DNA of 64,000 nucleotides. Origin: a virus. The notes under the pieces were generated by a model. The model saw nothing but the letters and a program-made list of their open reading frames with translations. It was not told where the DNA came from and did not search any database. The DNA lies in the IMG/VR virus record IMGVR_UViG_3300017917_003742, positions 11,160 through 75,159 of that record; one strand, written 5' to 3'. Numbering within the stretch: position 1 is the first letter of the stretch; each line of letters begins with the position of its first letter. A program made the position numbers and the translations under genes. Positions 1-59,471 of this stretch are shown piece by piece.

Positions 1-691
1 TATTTAACGCATCATCTTCTTTTAATAAATAAATTACACCTGCATTAAGCATGGAATCTGCTAATGCACAATAAAAAAAGTCTCCTCCTTCGGAATGACA
101 CGACGTTGTATCAAAATCTGACATTCTTAAAACATCAATGGGTGCTCTTGAATATACGATAAAATAATCAGAAAGCATTGACGCTTGAACTTGTTTTTCA
201 AGATTTGTTGTTTTTAACAAACGGTCAATTTTAACAATATTTTCTTTGTCGAACTTTAATTGATCTTGTAAAGCTTCAATTGTCCATCCGGTTTTTTCCA
301 TTCTACTATCAAACTCCTGTTTATCAGAAATTTGTAAAGATAATACAGATTCTATTGTTTCAACGTGCTTTTCTAATCTTTGTTTTTCATTTGTTAAAGC
401 TTTACCAATTCTTATTTTGTTTTTTGGTTGAGAAGGTTTGTAAACGATCCAATTATCAAAATCAATAACATATTTGTATTCTAATAAACTTTTTAAATCC
501 TGAACTATAGGAGAATCTTTTGCACCTGTTTTTAATCGGTCGATTATTCGTAGCTTGTCACCAAAAATAGAATTGAATGGTAGTTCGTTATTTTTTATTT
601 TATCTTTTAAACCTCCTGGAAGTTTATCCACATACTGTTGAGATACTTCTTCAATAACTTTTTTTCCATTTATAAAACTTTTAAAATTCAT
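1..691 (-). CDS. Hypothetical late protein, runs off the window start (MNFKSFINGKKVIEEVSQQYV...FIVYSRAPIDVLRMSDFDTTSCHSEGGDFFYCAL...)
   Basis: Hand-translated open frame from ATG at 691. TAAGTA late-type box 5 nt upstream (702-697). Absent from the ORF track because it has no stop codon in the window. Confidence 0.8.
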   Translation of the reverse strand, partial: MNFKSFINGKKVIEEVSQQYVDKLPGGLKDKIKNNELPFNSIFGDKLRIIDRLKTGAKDSPIVQDLKSLLEYKYVIDFDNWIVYKPSQPKNKIRIGKALTNEKQRLEKHVETIESVLSLQISDKQEFDSRMEKTGWTIEALQDQLKFDKENIVKIDRLLKTTNLEKQVQASMLSDYFIVYSRAPIDVLRMSDFDTTSCHSEGGDFFYCALADSMLNAGVIYLLKEDDALN

Positions 692-712
692 AAAATTACT
701 TACCTTTTACTC

Positions 713-741
713 TTGACTTCATCAATGTGGCAGACTAAAGT
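713..741 (+). promoter_or_regulatory. Sigma70-type promoter TTGACT-N17-TAAAGT facing a structured non-coding region
   Basis: Same 17-nt spacing as the other promoters in the window, but no long ORF follows until 1044. Confidence 0.65.
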
Positions 742-746
742 AGTAG

Positions 747-996
747 TGTCTCAGTTTAAATACAAAAACGCTGCATTCCTCTAGGGGGCGATGCAGGGCA
801 GGATGAAGAATCTTATTCGGTTTTATTAGTTCCGATGTGAGACAAAGATTTTTTAAGACATAACTCGGCTCCAAAAACTACGGAATAGATTATGTTCTGT
901 CAAACAGTCTTCTCTCAAAATTATTCGTTGGGGGTAGGGGGCTGTTTGACAGGATTAAGAACAAAAACTCTCACCAAAAACTACATAATAGATTAT
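747..996 (+). ncRNA. Candidate structured ncRNA or 5' leader (function unknown)
   Basis: Pairings TGTCTCA(747-753)/TGAGACA(838-844), CTGCAT(771-776)/ATGCAG(791-796), and a long G-U-containing stem at 897-952. Local GC is higher than the flanks. Confidence 0.5.
871..996 (+). repeat. Two 23-bp direct repeats CCAAAAACTAC(GG/AT)AATAGATTAT (871-893, 974-996) flanking a long hairpin
   Basis: 21/23 identity, read directly from the sequence. Confidence 0.85.
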
Positions 997-1043
997 AAAA
1001 CCTTTTATAAAAATTATAATATTTTTTGGCCTTTTTTAAAATT

Positions 1044-1508
1044 ATGAGCAAAGAATTTATTAAGAACTGGTTTAGCAACATGCTTCCTTTTGATAGTCCA
1101 CTAGTGGTTGACGGAATTTCATACCCCGCTGTGGAAAATTATTATCAAGCAATGAAATTGCACGAAAATGATTTCGAGGGCAGAAAACTACTAGCATCGG
1201 TTTCTCCAAGAAAAAGCAAAACTCTGGTAAGAGAAATGAAGCAAAGAGAGCTTTCTGTTTCTGAAAAAATAAAATTTATGCGTTTTGCAATAGAGCATAA
1301 ATACTCTAACAACACAAGCTGGGGTAAAAAATTATTAGAAACTGGCGATGAACAGATTATTGAATACAACAATTGGGGTGACGTTTTTTGGGGATTTGAT
1401 GTTGAAAAGGGTGAGGGAAAAAATCTTCTTGGTTTATTGTTAATGGCTCGTCGTTCAGAACTAAACTTGGAAAATCTTTTAAATGAAAGTTGTAAACTTA
1501 AAAACTGA
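1044..1508 (+). CDS. NADAR / YbiA family hydrolase
   Basis: FSN..., VENYYQAMK, LLETGD..IIE.N.WGDVFWG, G.G.NLLG.LLM motifs. ATG at 1044 preferred over TTG at 1026. Confidence 0.9.
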   Translation: MSKEFIKNWFSNMLPFDSPLVVDGISYPAVENYYQAMKLHENDFEGRKLLASVSPRKSKTLVREMKQRELSVSEKIKFMRFAIEHKYSNNTSWGKKLLETGDEQIIEYNNWGDVFWGFDVEKGEGKNLLGLLLMARRSELNLENLLNESCKLKN

Positions 1509-1779
1509 ACCATATGACCTTTATATAGGTCGAGAAAATATCACTTACAATCTTGAGGAGAGTAAGTGGAAAAATCCTTTTTCATTAGAATTTTATAATC
1601 GAGAAGAAGCAGTATCTTTATACGAAACTTACGTACGGCAAAGTGAATTATACAATCAACTTGATGAGTTAGAAGGTAAAACTCTTGGCTGCTGGTGCGC
1701 TCCAAAACTTTGTCATGGAGACATTTTAATAAAACTTTATAATGAAAAAAGGTTGAATTCTTTATTAGATTTCAGTTAA
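1483..1779 (+). CDS. DUF4326 family protein
   Basis: YIGR...SKWKNPF...LEGKTLGCWCAPKLCHGDIL signature. Confidence 0.85.
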   Translation: MKVVNLKTEPYDLYIGRENITYNLEESKWKNPFSLEFYNREEAVSLYETYVRQSELYNQLDELEGKTLGCWCAPKLCHGDILIKLYNEKRLNSLLDFS

Positions 1780-1786
1780 TACTGTT

Positions 1787-2683
1787 ATGGTATTACTGCT
1801 TGGTAAAAACGGATACGTTTCAAAACGTTTTATTGATTTTTTCGAATTTAAAAATATAAAATATAAAAGTCTTTCTTTAAAAGACACAAACCTTTCGCCT
1901 TCTTACGTTTTAGAATCGGTTATAGACGAAATAAAACCTCGTTTTGTTATAAATGCAATGGGTTACACAGGAGTTCCAAACGTGGACGCTTGTGAAGACA
2001 GTAAAAAAGAGTGTCTTTTTGCTAACGTAATTCTTGCCGAAGGTGTAGCGGATATGTGTCGTAAGAAAAACCTTCCTCTTGGCTTTGTTAGCAGTGGTTG
2101 TATTTACAACGAAGATGAAGTTGAATGGTGGAGAACTTATAAAGAAAAGGATTGGCCTAATTTTTCATTCTACAACACGAAAAGCGATTGCTCATGGTAT
2201 AGTGGAACAAAAGCTCTTGGAGAAAGTCTTGTAAGAAAAAGCTGGGACCGAACCAGAATATTCAGATTAAGAATGCCATTTAATCATTTGGACGGTCCTA
2301 AAAACTATCTCTCCAAAATATTCACTTATGACAAAGTGTTGAGTCTTGAAAATTCTCTTACAAATCTTGATGAGTTTGTTCGTGCAGTTTATCAAGGAAT
2401 GAATGCGGAAACTCCCTATGGAACATATAACATTGTTAATCATGGAGGAATAAGTGCAAAAAGAATTCACACTCTTGCCAAAGCATACAATCTTGGAAAA
2501 GAGAGTTATGAATACTTCGAAAGTTTAGAAGAGTTTAACAAAGTTGTAAGAACACCTAGAAGCAATTGTGTTTTAGATACTAGTAAAATTAAAACTGAGG
2601 GCATTTACATGCTTCCAGTTGAGGAGAGTTTAATTAGATGTTTTGAATCATGGAATCAACCCGAAAGAAAAATATTCTGGTAA
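1787..2683 (+). CDS. rmlD: RmlD-like SDR; NRS/ER-type NDP-4-keto-6-deoxyglucose (3,5-epimerase)/4-reductase
   Basis: GKNGYV, GYTGVPNVDACE, SSGCIY, YSGTK, LRMP, PRSNCVLD motifs. Lies in an operon with rmlB and rmlA. Confidence 0.8.
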   Translation: MVLLLGKNGYVSKRFIDFFEFKNIKYKSLSLKDTNLSPSYVLESVIDEIKPRFVINAMGYTGVPNVDACEDSKKECLFANVILAEGVADMCRKKNLPLGFVSSGCIYNEDEVEWWRTYKEKDWPNFSFYNTKSDCSWYSGTKALGESLVRKSWDRTRIFRLRMPFNHLDGPKNYLSKIFTYDKVLSLENSLTNLDEFVRAVYQGMNAETPYGTYNIVNHGGISAKRIHTLAKAYNLGKESYEYFESLEEFNKVVRTPRSNCVLDTSKIKTEGIYMLPVEESLIRCFESWNQPERKIFW

Positions 2684-3648
2684 CAGGTGGACTTGGCTTT
2701 ATTGGCTGGAACTTTATTAATAAAGTATTAGGTGAAAATTTAATTGAGTGTGATGTTTTAGTAAACATTGACAGTGGTGAGTATTCTGCCATTAACAATA
2801 TACCGCTTGAAACTCCAAAGTATAAGTTTTACAAAGGAAAAATGGGTGAATTGAGTGAATCTGTTTTGGAAAACTACAATATAGATACTGTGGTAAATTT
2901 TGCTGCAAGCACACACGTTGACAACTCCATCAAAAGCGTAAAAGCATTTGTGGAAAACAATGTTTTAGAAATGAGCATTCTCATGGAAAACTGCCGAAAC
3001 TTTTGGAAAAAGAAAAACATAGACGGCTTGTTTGTTCAAATTAGCACAGACGAAGTTTTTGGTAGTGTAGAAGATCAAGGAGGAATATCATTCAACGAAT
3101 ACACTCTTCATCATCCAAACAATCCTTATAGTGCAACAAAAAGTGCAGCAGAAGTTTTACTTCGCTCTTTTATGCACACTTACAACTTTCCAGCAATTAT
3201 TACAAACTGTGGAAATAATTATGGACCGGGACAGCATGAGGAAAAACTAATTCCTAAAATTATAAAGTGTTGCTTAGAAAAGAAAAGCATTCCAATTTAC
3301 GGAAACGGAATGCAAAAACGCGACTGGATTTATGTGGACGATCACTGTGAAGGAATTGCTCGCGCAATTCATCTTGGACGAAAAGGAGATTCTTATCTTT
3401 TTGGAACAACTAAAAATGTTACAAACTTGGAACTTACTAAAATTATTTGCCGAATTTTAGACAAAAAATTAAACAGCATTTCTCCACTTGAATCTCTTAT
3501 ACATTTTGTTGAAGATCGTTTGGGTCATGATGTAACATACACTGTGGATTATGCCCGCTCACTTCAAATGTTGGGATGGGAACCAAAAACAGATTTAAGT
3601 GAAGGACTTGAAAAAACTGTTGACTGGTATTTAAATAAAATACAATGA
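2650..3648 (+). CDS. rmlB: dTDP-glucose 4,6-dehydratase
   Basis: TGGLGFIG, FAASTHVDNSI, ISTDEVFG, PYSATK, NNYGP.Q..EKLIP, RDWIYVDDH, DRLGHD. Confidence 0.95.
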   Translation: MESTRKKNILVTGGLGFIGWNFINKVLGENLIECDVLVNIDSGEYSAINNIPLETPKYKFYKGKMGELSESVLENYNIDTVVNFAASTHVDNSIKSVKAFVENNVLEMSILMENCRNFWKKKNIDGLFVQISTDEVFGSVEDQGGISFNEYTLHHPNNPYSATKSAAEVLLRSFMHTYNFPAIITNCGNNYGPGQHEEKLIPKIIKCCLEKKSIPIYGNGMQKRDWIYVDDHCEGIARAIHLGRKGDSYLFGTTKNVTNLELTKIICRILDKKLNSISPLESLIHFVEDRLGHDVTYTVDYARSLQMLGWEPKTDLSEGLEKTVDWYLNKIQ

Positions 3649-4364
3649 AAGGAATAATTTTAGCGGGAGGGCGGGGATCGAGATTAGCACCTTTAACAAA
3701 AGCAGTTAGCAAGCAGTTGCTTCCTGTTTACAAATATCCAATGATTTATTTCCCAATCAACACATTACTCCAAATGGGAATAGAGGATATTTTAATCATA
3801 ACAACACCAGAACATCAAAATCTTTTTAAGGAAACTCTCAAAGATTTAAAATGTGCAAATTTTTCTTATATTGTTCAGGACAGTCCTCGCGGTTTGCCAG
3901 AAGCGTTTGTTCTCGCAGAAGAGTGGTTAGAAGGCAGTGACGTTGCGCTTATTTTAGGTGACAACATTATAATTAATAACGCTCCAATAGATTGCCTTCC
4001 AAACACGGTTTTTTCCTACAAAGTTAAACATCCTGAAAGATATGGTGTGTTGGATTTTGACGAAGATGGTCGCATCAAAAACATTGTTGAAAAGCCTCAA
4101 ACATACATTAGCGACAATGCAATGATTGGTCTTTATGTATTAGAGAATAGTGCATGTGAAATCGCCAAAAAATTAAAACCATCAAGCCGAGGCGAACTTG
4201 AAATTGTTGACCTTATCAAAGAAATGAATAAAAAACATCCTGTTTCAGTTTTAGAACTTGATGGTTTCTGGTTTGATGCAGGAACACATGACGATCTTCT
4301 TGATTGTGGTAATCTTGTAAAAGCTATAGAATTTAGAACAAACAAGAGCTTCGATTTAGCTTGA
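3645..4364 (+). CDS. rmlA: Glucose-1-phosphate thymidylyltransferase
   Basis: GIILAGG.GSRL.PLT..VSKQLLPVY, LILGDN, EKP, RGELEI, WFDAGT. Confidence 0.95.
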   Translation: MKGIILAGGRGSRLAPLTKAVSKQLLPVYKYPMIYFPINTLLQMGIEDILIITTPEHQNLFKETLKDLKCANFSYIVQDSPRGLPEAFVLAEEWLEGSDVALILGDNIIINNAPIDCLPNTVFSYKVKHPERYGVLDFDEDGRIKNIVEKPQTYISDNAMIGLYVLENSACEIAKKLKPSSRGELEIVDLIKEMNKKHPVSVLELDGFWFDAGTHDDLLDCGNLVKAIEFRTNKSFDLA

Positions 4365-5943: not shown

Positions 5944-6708
5944 ATGAAAAACGTAAACGAGACAAAACTAGAGGCACTTAATATCGCCAAGCAATTTAAT
6001 GCTGGCGATTTAGATGAGCTATTAAATAATGCACAAAAAGTTCTAAACTTTTTAGAATATTATGTAGGAGACTGCTCTAATAAACTACAAGAGAAAAAAG
6101 AAAAATTTATTGAGGTTGTTGACCGACAACTAAATCAGTATAATTACAAAGACCCTCTCAGAAAAGAGTATGCGCGTCATGCAATTGTAGCAGATTATAT
6201 TGATAAGCGTTTAAAGACTGGAATTCAAGAGCTTTGCAATCAGATTGATGAAGAGGTTGGCGAGGAATACGCAACAGTAAAACCTGAATATAAGACTGGT
6301 GAAAAGATTGCAGAGGTTTTCATGAGCGGTCTTGTACCCACCGAAAAAGATTCTGTTTTTTCTAGTGGTGACTATGTTTCACCACCCGAAGAAAAAGATA
6401 CCACCTGCAAAGAAGCTGGTCATAAATCAAAGATAATTTTAACTCACAGAGAAGAAGTGGATAAAGAACTTTTAAAAGTTCTAAACGAAAAGATTCAAGA
6501 AGACATTCAAATTTCTAAAGATAATCAAAAAAAGAAGTCATGTACACCATTAGTTGATTCTTTCATAAAGCAGCAAGATAAAAAGGCGGGTAGTCCTATT
6601 GTTATAGGTAGCTCGGCAATTCAACCAATTACTGATTTCAAACATATATCAAAGGATGTTCTTGAAAGAATGCATAAAATTTCAATAAGCGAAGAAAATG
6701 GAATTTAA
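5944..6708 (+). CDS. Hypothetical protein
   Basis: 254-aa ORF coupled to neighbours. Confidence 0.7.
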   Translation: MKNVNETKLEALNIAKQFNAGDLDELLNNAQKVLNFLEYYVGDCSNKLQEKKEKFIEVVDRQLNQYNYKDPLRKEYARHAIVADYIDKRLKTGIQELCNQIDEEVGEEYATVKPEYKTGEKIAEVFMSGLVPTEKDSVFSSGDYVSPPEEKDTTCKEAGHKSKIILTHREEVDKELLKVLNEKIQEDIQISKDNQKKKSCTPLVDSFIKQQDKKAGSPIVIGSSAIQPITDFKHISKDVLERMHKISISEENGI

Positions 6709-18872: not shown

Positions 18873-19733
18873 ATGTCAAAATTTAATCATTTCAAAGAAA
18901 AAACCGCAGTCGCAATCATCACCTGTAACCGTGAAGAATTCCTCCATCAAGCAGTAGAAAGCATAGATCGTGAAGCTGTAGGAGAAATTTTCGTTGTTAA
19001 TGCTGGTGGTCATCTTAAAAAAAGACCCGAAGGCGTTAAAATTGTTCAGTGTAACCGAAATCCTACCGTTGTAGGAATTGCTAAGAATATTGCTCTTCGT
19101 GAAATGAAAAAGAGTGGATACGAGTTTTTATTCTTAATGGAAGATGATGTTAAAGTTAAAGATAATAATGTTTTCTTGAAGTATATTGAAACCGCAATGG
19201 ACAGTGGACTTTGGGCAGGCCAGCTTTCTTATGGTGTTCACGGAGGCGTAGGAGGCGGAAACGTAGCTCCTGACGGAACTCCCCTAAAAAGACTCACTGT
19301 TCAATACACACATCATAAAGTAGATTTATATCGCAACAGCTTTCAAGCATTCACACTTTATCATGCAAACGTTTTAAATCAGATTGGATATTTCGCAGAA
19401 AACTATCTTAATGCAGCAGAACATTTAGATCATTACTACACTGCATACCTAAAAGGTCTTGGATGTAATTACTGGTATTTCCCTGACATTGAAAATTCAT
19501 TTGAGTATCTTGAAGACATTGATGCAAATCACAGCAACTCTGTAATTCGAAATTCCAAAGATTTTACAACCAACTTTTCAACAAGTTGGGGACTGTTCAA
19601 AGATAAATTCAATTGTTATCCTCACGAAGTCACGGATTCTTCTGTTGAAGAAGTGAACGAAAGATTAAATCTTATCGAACAAAACTATTCTCAAAAATCT
19701 TTACTAGAGTCTCCCGTTGACAGCGAACAATAA
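18873..19733 (+). CDS. Glycosyltransferase family 2
   Basis: AIITCNR, GIAKN, FLMEDD, EH.D motifs. Confidence 0.85.
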   Translation: MSKFNHFKEKTAVAIITCNREEFLHQAVESIDREAVGEIFVVNAGGHLKKRPEGVKIVQCNRNPTVVGIAKNIALREMKKSGYEFLFLMEDDVKVKDNNVFLKYIETAMDSGLWAGQLSYGVHGGVGGGNVAPDGTPLKRLTVQYTHHKVDLYRNSFQAFTLYHANVLNQIGYFAENYLNAAEHLDHYYTAYLKGLGCNYWYFPDIENSFEYLEDIDANHSNSVIRNSKDFTTNFSTSWGLFKDKFNCYPHEVTDSSVEEVNERLNLIEQNYSQKSLLESPVDSEQ

Positions 19734-19745
19734 CTGTAGTATAAT
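19717..19745 (+). promoter_or_regulatory. Consensus sigma70 promoter TTGACA-N17-TATAAT, 5 nt before ATG 19751
   Basis: Perfect consensus, read directly. Confidence 0.9.
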
Positions 19746-19750
19746 CTAGC

Positions 19751-20911
19751 ATGAGTCTTATTGATAAACTTAAAGAGTTAGGTGCAGTTTTTGTCGAAGA
19801 AACCATTAACGCCAATGATGGGAAATTCATTCTCGGAAAAGACGCTACAGCTTATGAGGAATTTCTCTATGTGTTGAAGTATGGTAACATTCCATCAACA
19901 TCTGATGTTGAATACAAGAAAAATCGCTTTGAAGAAGTGCTAAAATTCTTTATCAAAGAAAATTTCAAAGTTGGGTTTGTTCGTTCAACATACAATCGTT
20001 GGAGTGCAGAAACCGTCTTCTTGTTCAATGACAGCATCAAAACTATCATTGAACTTGCTGATCGAAAAAACAATGATGTTATTCTCACCACAGACGAGGA
20101 ATCGCAAAATGATGAGTATGCAACCATAACAATCTGTTATGACCTTCAAAAAGGTGGAGAATTTGCAAATAAAGTTAAAGAAGAATTTTTCGCAAAGAAA
20201 GATTTATCCGACAGTGGCAAGATTCTTTTGTTTGAAAAGACCGAATACAATGAGATGATTCTCACTCCTCACCCAATTAAGAACTATGATCTTGATTTGA
20301 GTGAAAACTACAACGACGACTTTCTTGATGTTCATGAAAAAATCAAAGGATGGGCAGAAGATTTCAAGAGTCGCAACAATAAGCTTGTTCTTCTTCATGG
20401 TGTTCCCGGTAGTGGAAAAACCAATTATATCAAGTATATCTTGAACAATATCAAATCCTCCAAGAAGATTTATATTCCGCCATATCTTGTGAACAGCATG
20501 GCAGACCCAGCATTTTTTCCTGTTATCAAACGTGAAAAGGAAAGCATTCTCATCATTGAAGATGCAGAAAAGATTCTTATCAATCGTGAAGATTCCTCAG
20601 ACAACAGTGTAATTTCAATCTTGTTGAACCTTTGTGATGGTATCATGGCTGATGTATTGAACTTTAAAATCATCGCAACTTTCAACACAGACGAAGATAA
20701 AATTGATGCTGCATTAAAGAGAAAAGGACGCATGTTTTTGAAGTATAAGTTTGACTCTCTTTCCAAAGAGAAAACTAAGCACTTGTTCAATAAAATTTAT
20801 GGTGCAGAACCACCTAAAGAACGTATGACTCTTGCCGAAATCTACAACGACGAAAACGAATTTGGTGCGAAAAAAGAAGAGAAGAAATCTATCGGTTTCC
20901 TTAATGTATGA
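19751..20911 (+). CDS. AAA+ ATPase
   Basis: LLHGVPGSGKT, LIIEDAE, LLN..DG, TFN, D.AL.R.GR. Confidence 0.88.
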   Translation: MSLIDKLKELGAVFVEETINANDGKFILGKDATAYEEFLYVLKYGNIPSTSDVEYKKNRFEEVLKFFIKENFKVGFVRSTYNRWSAETVFLFNDSIKTIIELADRKNNDVILTTDEESQNDEYATITICYDLQKGGEFANKVKEEFFAKKDLSDSGKILLFEKTEYNEMILTPHPIKNYDLDLSENYNDDFLDVHEKIKGWAEDFKSRNNKLVLLHGVPGSGKTNYIKYILNNIKSSKKIYIPPYLVNSMADPAFFPVIKREKESILIIEDAEKILINREDSSDNSVISILLNLCDGIMADVLNFKIIATFNTDEDKIDAALKRKGRMFLKYKFDSLSKEKTKHLFNKIYGAEPPKERMTLAEIYNDENEFGAKKEEKKSIGFLNV

Positions 20912-57169: not shown

Positions 57170-58168
57170 GTGGAATTGCCTCAACCATATGTCATAGATA
57201 AAATCTATTCATACTCAACAGATATAAGAGAAACAAACTCTTATATTAATGGATGCTGCCCAATTTGCCGAGAAGGCAAAAGTTGGGGAAGTAAGAGACG
57301 AATGTTTTATTTTTTGAACGAAGACTACATCTATTGTCATAATTGCAACAGAGGATGGAACACCTTTTTTTGGGTGAAAGAAGTCACAGGATTGAGTTTT
57401 AAACAAATCAAAGAAGAACTTAAGGATTATGATTATGATCCTAAATTCCGATTACTTGTGGATGGCTATGAAGAAAACCATTTCGAATTACCGTCTTTAC
57501 CGGGAGAGTGTGTAAACTTAAAAGACAGTCTTCAAGTAAACTATTTCAAAGATTATCCTGCTGTGAAAAAGGCAGAAGAGTATTGCCATTCTCGTCGTTT
57601 ATTCACTGCGAAAAATGCACCAAAAACTTTCTATTGCTGTGTAAATGATAAGTTTCATGGCAATCGTTTAATCATTCCGTTTTATAATTCATCTGGAAAA
57701 ATCGAAAGCTACATTTCTCGTAAGCTTTTAGATTCAGACAAGAAAGCAAAGTATCTTGTAAAGTTTGGTAGTAAAAAACCGATCTTCAATCTTGATAAGA
57801 TTGATGAGAACTATCCTTACATTTTTATTTTTGAAGGTCAGATAGACGCTATGTTTGTTAAAAACGGAATTGCGGTTTCAGGAATAGTTCTTACAGATGA
57901 ACAAGAAGAAACATTAACAAAGCTTTTTCCGTTTCATAACAAAATATGGGTGTTGGATAATTATCGCTTTGAAAAAGAAGAAGTGGTAAACAGTATAAAA
58001 GAAAAATTAAAGAACAACGAAACAATTTTCTTTTATCCAAATGATTTCGCGGACAGCAAAGACCTTAACGAATATTGCGTAAAAAAAGGTCTGGACTTTG
58101 TAAATCCAGACCTTTTAATAAGTGGTAGTTTAAAGGGAGATAAAGGAGTTATGGCGTTGGGAGAGTAG
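57170..58168 (+). CDS. gp61: DNA primase
   Basis: CPIC...K.R...CHNC zinc finger, RLIIPF, KY, EGQIDAMF TOPRIM, LDN, KDLN. Confidence 0.93.
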   Translation: MELPQPYVIDKIYSYSTDIRETNSYINGCCPICREGKSWGSKRRMFYFLNEDYIYCHNCNRGWNTFFWVKEVTGLSFKQIKEELKDYDYDPKFRLLVDGYEENHFELPSLPGECVNLKDSLQVNYFKDYPAVKKAEEYCHSRRLFTAKNAPKTFYCCVNDKFHGNRLIIPFYNSSGKIESYISRKLLDSDKKAKYLVKFGSKKPIFNLDKIDENYPYIFIFEGQIDAMFVKNGIAVSGIVLTDEQEETLTKLFPFHNKIWVLDNYRFEKEEVVNSIKEKLKNNETIFFYPNDFADSKDLNEYCVKKGLDFVNPDLLISGSLKGDKGVMALGE

Positions 58169-58695: not shown

Positions 58696-58724
58696 TTGAC
58701 ATTTTTTGCAAATCCTTGTATAGT
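58696..58724 (+). promoter_or_regulatory. Promoter TTGACA-N17-TATAGT, 6 nt before ATG 58731
   Basis: Read directly. Confidence 0.8.
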
Positions 58725-58730
58725 AAGGGT

Positions 58731-59471
58731 ATGGCCCGAAAATTTAAAATAATCATTCCAACACAAAAAAATAAAAATGAATATAACAATTCAAGTACTA
58801 ATGAATGTCTAACATCTATAGTAGTAGATTCTACAGTTCAGAAAAATTTAGATATAAATGTAACAGTTCAACCAATTTTAGAAAATAAGACTGGACTTTC
58901 AGAATTATATCAGAACGTTCTTAATGAAAGTGAAGATTTTGATTATGTATTGTTTATGCATGATGATTTAGAAATACATGATCATTTTTTATTCAAAAAA
59001 CTGTTAAAAGCACATGAACAGTATGACATTGTTGGTCTTGCTGGTGCAACAACTCAAGACTACTCTAAAAATGTTCCGATGGTATGGCATCTTTGTCGTG
59101 AAAAACCTGAACACTCTCGCGGTATTGTAAGTCACTATATTCCACAAGGATTTAATGGAGTTTCAGAAACACATATTAATTCTGCATACTTTGGTCCAAC
59201 ACCCGGTCCTGTTGTTGTAATTGATGGCTTGTTTATGAGCTTCAAAATGTCATCCTTAAAAGGAAAGGGTGAAGTTTTTAATAGAAACTTCACATTTCAT
59301 CACTATGACATGGGAATGTGTGTAAATGCTAACGACATGAATTTAAAAATTGGCGTATGGCCCATTTTCGTGTTACACTATGGTCTTGGCGAATTTGCTC
59401 ATGACAAAACATGGCAGAAACATGCTACAGAATTTAAACAACTATACGAAAACAAAAAACTATCAGTATGA
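58731..59471 (+). CDS. GT2-like glycosyltransferase (Glyco_tranf_2_5-like)
   Basis: LFMHDD, VGLAG, IDGLFM, FHHYD..C, V.H...G. Confidence 0.8.
   Translation: MARKFKIIIPTQKNKNEYNNSSTNECLTSIVVDSTVQKNLDINVTVQPILENKTGLSELYQNVLNESEDFDYVLFMHDDLEIHDHFLFKKLLKAHEQYDIVGLAGATTQDYSKNVPMVWHLCREKPEHSRGIVSHYIPQGFNGVSETHINSAYFGPTPGPVVVIDGLFMSFKMSSLKGKGEVFNRNFTFHHYDMGMCVNANDMNLKIGVWPIFVLHYGLGEFAHDKTWQKHATEFKQLYENKKLSV

Follow-up and report, generated by a model that had tools for sequence, protein, structure and literature searches.

Results

A candidate structured RNA at a switch of gene orientation

The stretch of viral DNA analysed here, 64,000 nucleotides (nt) long and referred to as the window, covers bases 11160-75159 of IMG/VR record IMGVR_UViG_3300017917_003742 (75,159 nt; CheckV completeness 29%). 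Among the proteins encoded by the record are an SMC-like protein and a family-B DNA polymerase, which shares only about 31% identity with the polymerases of T4-like cyanophages, pelagiphages and Methylophilales phages; a blastn search of window positions 1-3000 against 50,697 phage records gave no match, cultured phages included. In our reading the virus is a distant, uncultured member of the T4-like phages, with about 260 kb and about 33% G+C. Between a leftward open reading frame (ORF) of 924 amino acids (aa) starting at 691 and a rightward NADAR gene with its ATG at 1044 lies a gap of 352 nt (692-1043), and the ORFs from 1044 to 27135 are nearly all on the plus strand, so that gene orientation switches at 691/1044. 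A preliminary description of this DNA had called the gap the largest non-coding stretch, which agrees with crude ORF maps: the sole longer gap in an ATG-only map shortens to 230 nt if GTG is accepted as a start. Within the gap, positions 747-996 of the plus strand are very probably a real, selected structured RNA (Table 1), which was found in ten IMG/VR contigs representing seven distinct sequences and five lineages.

Table 1 Features of the RNA element and its surroundings (window coordinates unless stated otherwise).
Feature	Position	Strand	Description
Sigma-70-type promoter	713-741	+	-35 TTGACT 713-718, 17-nt spacer, -10 TAAAGT 736-741; predicted +1 at 746-748
5' pseudoknotted domain	747-854	+	P1 747-753/838-844; P2 hairpin 769-798; P4 hairpin 816-836; pseudoknot helix (PK) 805-814/845-854
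Conserved unpaired blocks of the 5' domain	763-771; 796-799		CAAAAACGC (763-771); GGGC (796-799)
P5 and first module (M1)	855-896	+	P5 857-863/890-896 encloses anchor ACTCGGCTCC (863-872) and M1 core AAAAACTAC (873-881); covers repeat copy 1 (871-893)
Long irregular hairpin	897-952	+	G-rich 3' strand GGGGGTAGGGGG (930-941), three U-G pairs, unconstrained apical part (about 908-932)
Pyrimidine-rich block and second module (M2)	965-996	+	Block CTCTCACC (968-975); M2 core 976-984, tail to 996; covers repeat copy 2 (974-996)
Spacer	997-1043	+	Very A+T-rich, precedes NADAR ATG at 1044; sequence not conserved
Near-consensus promoters, ATG 5-8 nt past -10	19717-19755; 58696-58735; record G000, 104-145		TTGACA-N17-TATAAT/TATAGT

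A conserved promoter in front of a covarying pseudoknot

The promoter TTGACT-N17-TAAAGT predicted in the preliminary description is present, and its hexamers and 17-nt spacing are kept in all seven distinct homologues (TTGAC[AT]-N17-TAAA[GCT]T) across diverged spacers. As a bare match it does not rise above chance (5 kb contain 19 promoter-like sites, the expectation being 16.6 +/- 4.9), and it is accepted as real because it is conserved in the homologues, not because of its consensus match alone. Throughout the homologue set P1 begins 5-6 nt past the -10 hexamer. Conservation between the window and a near-identical copy found by exact-pattern scan (IMG/VR contig 3300020160_002595, record G001; hereafter L002) begins at 747, in agreement with the earlier placement of the transcription start on the first base of the stem.

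When folded with RNAfold, positions 747-1000 reached -67.3 kcal/mol compared with -49.8 +/- 4.1 for shuffled sequences (z = -4.26; none of 200 shuffles was as stable), and the z values of all seven distinct RNAs lay between -3.7 and -6.0. The opposite strand was less stable (-46.3 kcal/mol). Covariation was scored for P1, P2, P4 and PK in an unfitted, plain MAFFT alignment of six sequences (A5), with controls in which the 3' partners were slid by 1-3 columns. Pairing was retained in 96.0% of 173 cells, as against 42.8-56.3% in the slid controls, and compensatory changes, with both sides altered, occurred in 14 of 29 pairs (1-6 in the controls); the covariation score of 0.598 compares with 0.10-0.20 and was reached by none of 500 shuffles. 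The PK helix alone was 98.3% paired, with compensatory changes in five of its ten pairs. Adding the more diverged sequence L091, in a model-fitted alignment that is biased toward the model, gave 95.0% pairing, compensatory changes in 20 of 29 pairs and a PK helix paired throughout (100%). G-U pairs make up 19 of the 200 cells of this larger alignment and would be A-C mismatches on the other strand, which, together with the promoter direction, identifies the plus strand as the RNA.

These results bear directly on the fold that had been proposed. The closing stem TGTCTCA/TGAGACA with its two inner hairpins lies where it was predicted and carries compensatory changes, and the possible pseudoknot AATCTT/AAGATT (809-814/845-850) is not only present but extends to a covarying helix of ten base pairs, whose 3' strand immediately follows that of P1. 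Collection of homologous regions and a check for covariation, the route suggested in the preliminary description, thus showed the pairing to be both conserved and compensatory.

Two matched modules flank a long hairpin

Downstream of the pseudoknotted domain, P5 folds in the window, L002 and L101 from differing sequences (RNAfold), and its anchor, ACTCGRCTCY, is invariant in kind in all seven distinct sequences. The long G-U-containing stem noted earlier has arms of 11 nt (897-907/942-952) that are 100% complementary and are extended by the three U-G pairs (RNAfold); a long irregular hairpin folded at the equivalent place in each lineage. MAFFT failed to align the 5' strand of this hairpin in register, and each sequence's own fold was used instead of pair counts. 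The 3'-strand positions were paired in the minimum-free-energy fold of all six sequences, with pair types differing at seven or more positions, evidence that is weaker than the covariation counts because pairs taken from a sequence's own fold are canonical by construction. In these folds changes of the variable base of the G-rich block go together with changes of the base it pairs with, which speaks for RNA pairing over an ops-like motif. Possible resemblances of this block to ops/JUMPStart, and of the repeats to a Cas12a-type repeat handle, were given no weight. Most differences of L002 and of the contigs from sequencing runs, including insertions and deletions, fall at about 908-932, and judging by this pattern the apical part of the hairpin looks to be under relaxed constraint.

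The two 23-nt direct repeats described at 871-893 and 974-996 are identical at 21 of 23 positions. A search with the repeat pattern, allowing up to three mismatches, returned three occurrences in the window, a number attained by none of 100 shuffles (shuffle mean 0.00). Each repeat belongs to a module that opens with a pyrimidine-rich anchor (ACTCGRCTCY or CTCYCNCY), continues with a core of about 10 nt specific to the lineage and closes with a tail rich in A. Identity between M1 and M2 over their first 10 nt is 0.70-0.90 inside every one of the five lineages (mean 0.82), compared with a cross-lineage mean of 0.56, and of 120 permutations of the M1/M2 pairing only the true one attains the observed mean. 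The two repeats therefore change together between lineages. No consistent complement to the cores of 6 nt or longer was found inside the element or in the flanking 60-80 nt on either side in six sequences.

Homologues are few and the RNA moves between phage backbones

Related loci were fetched through the neighbouring exonuclease protein (13, later 14). Diverged copies of the RNA were then recognized by nhmmer in L094/L097, L095/L098/L103, L101 and L102, and the copy in L091 by a covariance model (36.8 bits, E 1.6e-4). In IMG/VR a three-block pattern picked up the contigs already in the set without adding any, and scans with the repeat and with an 18-mer each matched L002 only; the hairpin arms as an exact pattern in IMG/VR and a 25-mer in JGI metagenome contigs gave no matches. 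The three-block pattern had one hit among GTDB species genomes, a high-G+C metagenome-assembled genome of the Acidobacteriaceae, which showed no further similarity and was read as chance. Loci gathered by way of NADAR (14 from IMG/VR and 65 from metagenomes) lacked the element: nhmmer was negative, and model R1 matched none of 78 sources. Close relatives of the NADAR protein (P0002-P0013) show 58-88% identity. Neither R1 nor R2 gave anything significant in L093, L096, L099/L100 and L112; upstream of the exonuclease gene only 2,161 nt of L093 and 1,242 nt of L096 are available, and the site possibly lies beyond the contig. Near-identical sequence is present in 20 of the 22 sequencing runs listed for window positions 600-1300, from 16 studies of pond, freshwater, aquatic and wastewater samples.

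A 334-nt intergenic region of L099 (4361-4694, minus strand; also in L100) occupies the syntenic junction between RNase HI and a large ORF. Visual inspection shows helices arranged in the same topology, a G-rich block (GGGGAAGGGG) and three short direct repeats, and the fold has a z of -3.2. The region scored 5.5 bits (E 0.34), which is not significant, and was counted not as a member but as an unproven analogue, perhaps a relative that has diverged very far from the RNA.

Comparison of whole loci indicates that the RNA has a history of its own. The phages of the window and of L002 are syntenic upstream at 70-76% nucleotide identity, and near-complete identity spans 747-996 and collapses on both flanks. 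Across 6,893 fully aligned 250-nt segments of records G000, the phage of the window, and G001, the highest-scoring one is exactly 747-996 (96.0%), the median being 76.0% and the next non-overlapping segment 86.0%. The promoters of the window and L002 are 66% identical and their RNAs 96%, whereas between the window and L091 the promoters are 85% and the exonuclease proteins 90% identical and the RNAs 56%. RNA type is thus independent of the phage backbone, pointing to exchange as a cassette with exchange points at the ends of the RNA.

The RNA is recovered in metatranscriptome assemblies

The run evidence consists of assembled contigs from four runs, and stretches left uncovered in RNA runs are a weak hint only. 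In the metatranscriptome X20 a 253-nt contig covers 738-991, and in X19, from a different study, a 206-nt contig covers 764-968; in both the flanks are nearly uncovered. In X18, which is probably a DNA run, a 12.3-kb contig ends at 1000 and two others begin at 971, indicating that contexts diverge directly after the element.

Position is constant and neighbours differ

In every relative carrying it, the RNA lies at the junction of leftward and rightward genes, whose identities vary. A protein of 700-924 aa is encoded upstream in the window, L094, L095, L101 and L102; the 924-aa ORF itself (L082:9076-11850, minus strand, reaching 691 in the window) belongs to G000, and L099 too has a relative in the 700-900-aa range. 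G001 and L091 lack a large upstream protein, and a 137-145-aa ORF abuts the RNA there. For the 924-aa protein, the IMG/VR protein search returned no relatives and Pfam, PHROG, PDB and Atlas provided no lead.

The first rightward gene encodes NADAR in the window and G001, RNase HI in L094/L095, an RmlD-like protein in L101 and a 125-aa ORF in L091. Behind the RNA of L102 comes instead a convergent 348-aa gene (3204-4250, plus strand) ending 36 nt after M2; its family comprises 22 homologues (33-95% identity) from freshwater-type assemblies and has no Pfam domain. A co-directional gene follows within about 50-110 nt in four of the five lineages; in L094/L095 and L102 the next gene in the direction of the RNA encodes RNase HI. 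The 110 nt past the M2 anchor are 15-26% G+C in all six lineages examined. Directly behind the RNA, L091 carries an A+T-rich 20-bp unit in about 3.5 tandem copies (6430-6510, minus strand), and G001 has an 11-bp unit twice at the same site.

A Dda-like helicase is encoded a few genes downstream of the RNA in every lineage. The superfamily 1 helicase of this type in L091 (1299-3269, minus strand) is 656 aa long instead of the usual 450 or so and contains an intein splicing domain and an HNH endonuclease inside its P-loop region. The region near the RNA also encodes a methyltransferase, and a 178-aa protein (L082:1018-1554, minus strand) matches the 2'-5' RNA ligase (2H phosphoesterase) superfamily, its score against the anti-CBASS protein Acb1 (26.1 bits) being just under the 27-bit cut-off. 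The observation that other promoters of this phage sit on start codons was borne out at three sites or more (Table 1), and from sequence suggests that leaderless mRNAs are common in the phage. TTGAAA-N17-TATAGT also precedes a GTG-start ORF at window position 57170.

Discussion

A stand-alone RNA is favoured

The preliminary description had left three options for the element: a phage non-coding RNA, a leader of the NADAR-DUF4326 genes or an RNA-primed origin. A promoter-driven, plus-strand, structured and covarying RNA is what was found, and the NADAR-specific leader is the part that did not stand. That the RNA is stand-alone and trans-acting is the reading we favour, as a serious candidate short of being probable. 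It is favoured because the downstream gene is not conserved and is convergent in L102, because the whole 250 nt is constrained, because the RNA appears alone in two metatranscriptome assemblies, and because the twin modules look like displayed recognition sites. The argument from the convergent gene of L102 is independent of any intrinsic terminator, none being conserved.

According to this model, the host RNA polymerase would transcribe an RNA of about 250 nt early in infection from the near-consensus sigma-70 promoter, with +1 on the first base pair. The 5' domain, in which P1, P2 and P4 are locked by the 10-bp pseudoknot, and the 3' domain, a long G-U-containing hairpin bracketed by two copies of one module, would together form a conserved scaffold. 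Its two identical cores, left unpaired, would be offered to a fast-evolving partner present in two copies or as a dimer. This partner might be a protein or nucleic acid of the host or of a rival phage, and in takeover or conflict the RNA would then serve as decoy, sponge or guide. Binding through the twin modules specifically is a mechanism that we put forward with low confidence.

Several observations weigh against a stand-alone, trans-acting RNA or against the strength of its support. The sample is small, with only seven distinct sequences in five lineages, and the 96% identity between the window and L002 may stem from recent transfer rather than purifying selection. No target or partner has emerged for the cores: a search of 238 kb of related loci gave self-hits only plus one 12/13-nt site in L101, and this only long complement is part of an ORF and hardly exceeds what chance would give. 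The RNA evidence consists of assembled contigs, which give no strand, ends or levels, and since the element is common to co-occurring strains, summed depth can be inflated relative to the polymorphic flanks. X20 also contains a 96-nt fold-back contig, the reverse complement of 738-767 joined to 702-767, that reaches upstream of +1 and may represent a cDNA artefact or transcription of the leftward gene. Finally, a terminator-like hairpin follows M2 in only one of six lineages (L101, -7.3 kcal/mol), leaving no defined 3' end, and in the absence of a conserved terminator most transcripts may run into the downstream genes.

Alternative explanations

It is this last point, that no terminator is conserved, which sustains the idea of a cis-acting 5' leader of the rightward early operon, in which the nascent RNA would work on its own transcript or on the polymerase, by processive antitermination of the HK022 put or EAR kind, by transcript stabilisation or as a processing site, the 250-nt piece being a cleaved leader that accumulates. 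The RNA does start at the +1 of a promoter heading a long co-directional run, and a co-directional gene usually lies close behind; we nevertheless consider a leader unlikely, if a realistic contender. The next gene in L102 is convergent and real, and the first downstream gene comes from five different families, so that no gene-specific regulation is conserved; with it falls a leader dedicated to NADAR-DUF4326, and a riboswitch or other gene-specific leader, for which a consistent class of downstream gene would be expected, was rejected. Conservation extends over the entire 250 nt, beyond an aptamer-sized part. An expression platform of the riboswitch or attenuator kind was likewise rejected: the terminator-like hairpin is confined to a single lineage, and a competing pairing in the window (837-842/969-974), a possible switch, was dropped as it is not kept in L101. 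No leader ORF is conserved either.

An origin of the T4 oriE/oriF type, in which the early transcript would form a persistent R-loop in or beside an A+T-rich stretch and prime the leading strand, the repeats being iteron-like protein-binding sites and the 5' domain guiding the hybrid as in ColE1 RNA II, is in our view improbable, in spite of a suggestive setting. The point at which leftward genes give way to rightward ones (691/1044) coincides with an early-type promoter (713-741) that reads into A+T-rich DNA, in L091 into the tandem repeat; the direct repeats are lineage-specific; the G-runs at 785-789 and 930-941 are unusual for a genome of 33% G+C; RNase HI is the next co-directional gene in some lineages, and a Dda-like helicase is near in all; and there are parallels with T4 oriE as described in PMC3016281. 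Against this stand the selection on RNA pairing, pseudoknot included, no conserved RNA fold being known to be common to T4 origins (PMC3016281). The repeats number only two, about 100-135 nt apart, and form no evenly spaced cluster; no adjacent initiator gene tracks RNA type, G000 and G001 sharing the RNA and differing upstream; and no RNase HI is encoded in the 75-kb fragment, which is 29% complete. GC skew cannot separate an origin from the change of gene orientation.

A further, doubtful proposal is that of a specificity-bearing control RNA, in which the pseudoknotted scaffold would carry two exchangeable recognition copies reading nucleic acid or protein of the host or of a rival phage, and the cassette-swapped types would be compatibility or immunity groups. 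Such types could reflect ColE1-like replication control in a lytic T4-like phage, or an RNA weapon or decoy in conflict between phages or between phage and host.

A DNA-level element without RNA function, such as a miniature transposon with target duplication, a recombination site or a PeSL-type cassette, would account for the inverted repeat flanked by direct repeats and for RNA types swapped between backbones with breakpoints at their ends; it is highly improbable, given that the element is single-copy in the 75-kb record, keeps a fixed syntenic position in all lineages and combines G-U pairs with compensatory changes, which amounts to selection on plus-strand RNA pairing. An attenuator in which translation of the 12-codon ORF (GTG 746 to TAG 782) would control the downstream fold can practically be dismissed: the ORF exists in the window and is intact in L002 (TTG start), leaderless-type promoters are common in this phage and the three substitutions among close variants (775, 778 and 781) all fall at third codon positions, but the same substitutions are tolerated by P2 (A-U to G-U, C-G to U-G and one end pair), none of the codons ATG, GTG and TTG is present at the 5' end of L095, and L101 has an in-frame stop after three codons.

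Significance

Few large, structured non-coding RNAs are known from phages, and hardly any of them has been assigned a function. Support for the present one is unusually good for an uncultured virus, comprising a conserved host-type promoter, a covarying pseudoknot, a fixed position, and presence in metatranscriptome assemblies and in freshwater, pond and wastewater data from 16 studies. The combination of a scaffold bearing two matched, lineage-specific modules with cassette exchange suggests that the RNA serves in recognition, with selection arising from conflict or compatibility. Were the RNA to act in trans, it would be a candidate RNA decoy or guide; were it to prime replication, its conserved RNA fold would be a first among T4-type origins. 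Under either reading it offers a concrete, testable RNA for a widespread group of freshwater phages of roughly 260 kb.

Comparison with known RNAs and elements

A search of Rfam 15, the first check that the preliminary description had proposed, assigned no identity: there were no matches at the gathering threshold in the whole window or in five related loci, and the best sub-threshold hit in 600-1150, to a miRNA model (24.9 bits against a threshold of 79; E 0.05), merely matches the long hairpin. ARAGORN found no tRNA or tmRNA genes in the window. A literature search yielded no description of the RNA, though a sub-part of it may overlap an entry in the catalogue of Fremin et al. 2023 (PMC10690425). 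That catalogue holds 8,495 candidate structured RNAs of 29-151 nt from IMG/VR, the same data source, supported by the same kind of evidence, homologous intergenic regions and covariation (PMC10690425); the element, at about 250-285 nt, is longer. We rate the element as a new family of non-protein-coding phage RNA of roughly 250 nt, unusual in its twin modules and evolving in the manner of a cassette.

PeSLs are described as short, multi-copy promoter-terminator motifs (PMC2839356, PMC4122927), and identity with a PeSL cassette or a miniature inverted-repeat transposable element was rejected in view of the single copy in the 75,159-nt record instead of many dispersed ones. As a CRISPR mini-array or RNA anti-CRISPR the element would be atypical, with repeats of 23-31 nt around a conserved, structured insert of 80-110 nt. 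Immunity RNAs of the P4 CI or P1 c4 type have flanking repeats complementary to an RNA segment between or near them; such an identity is not supported, the cores of six sequences having no consistent complement of this sort in or around the element. The HK022 put sites and EAR are cis-acting antiterminator RNAs, and EAR contains a pseudoknot. The element resembles them as a promoter-proximal structured RNA heading a long operon, and differs in being much longer, in its twin modules, in the convergent gene behind it in one lineage and in the lack of an Rfam match.

With phage guide-like and decoy RNAs (VIPR vrRNAs, viral single-guide RNAs and RNA anti-CRISPRs) the element shares being phage-encoded and promoter-driven, a conserved scaffold with variable recognition segments, and a place among accessory or anti-defence-like genes. 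The vrRNAs consist of 9-16 tandem YNNGG repeats and a conserved tail (10.64898/2026.04.26.720920); no YNNGG array is seen on reading 747-996, and vrRNA identity was rejected. Viral single-guide RNAs carry the guide at the 5' end (10.64898/2026.06.01.729453), whereas the element opens with its pseudoknot domain. No Cas-like or Vipr-like partner gene was identified.

Parallels in setting are found among replication origins. For T4 oriE, PMC3016281 describes direct 12-nt repeats, dependence on an early promoter and a location at a strand switch, and reports that dda mutations lower synthesis most evidently at this origin. T4 origins and the element have in common an early or middle promoter at a strand switch, direct repeats (in oriE), A+T-rich DNA downstream and a Dda-type helicase nearby, and are set apart by the covarying pseudoknotted fold of the element, no conserved RNA secondary structure being described for the former (PMC3016281). 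From an iteron cluster the element differs in having two spaced repeats. The ColE1 primer RNA II and the element are both promoter-driven, folded and G-rich, and priming of DNA synthesis by the element would likewise depend on correct folding; they also share an adjoining RNase H, in some lineages of the element, and the existence of variant types built on a common scaffold. At the element, however, neither a conserved antisense promoter nor a counterpart of RNA I was seen; it shows no sequence or Rfam similarity to RNA II and is carried by a lytic T4-like phage, not a plasmid.

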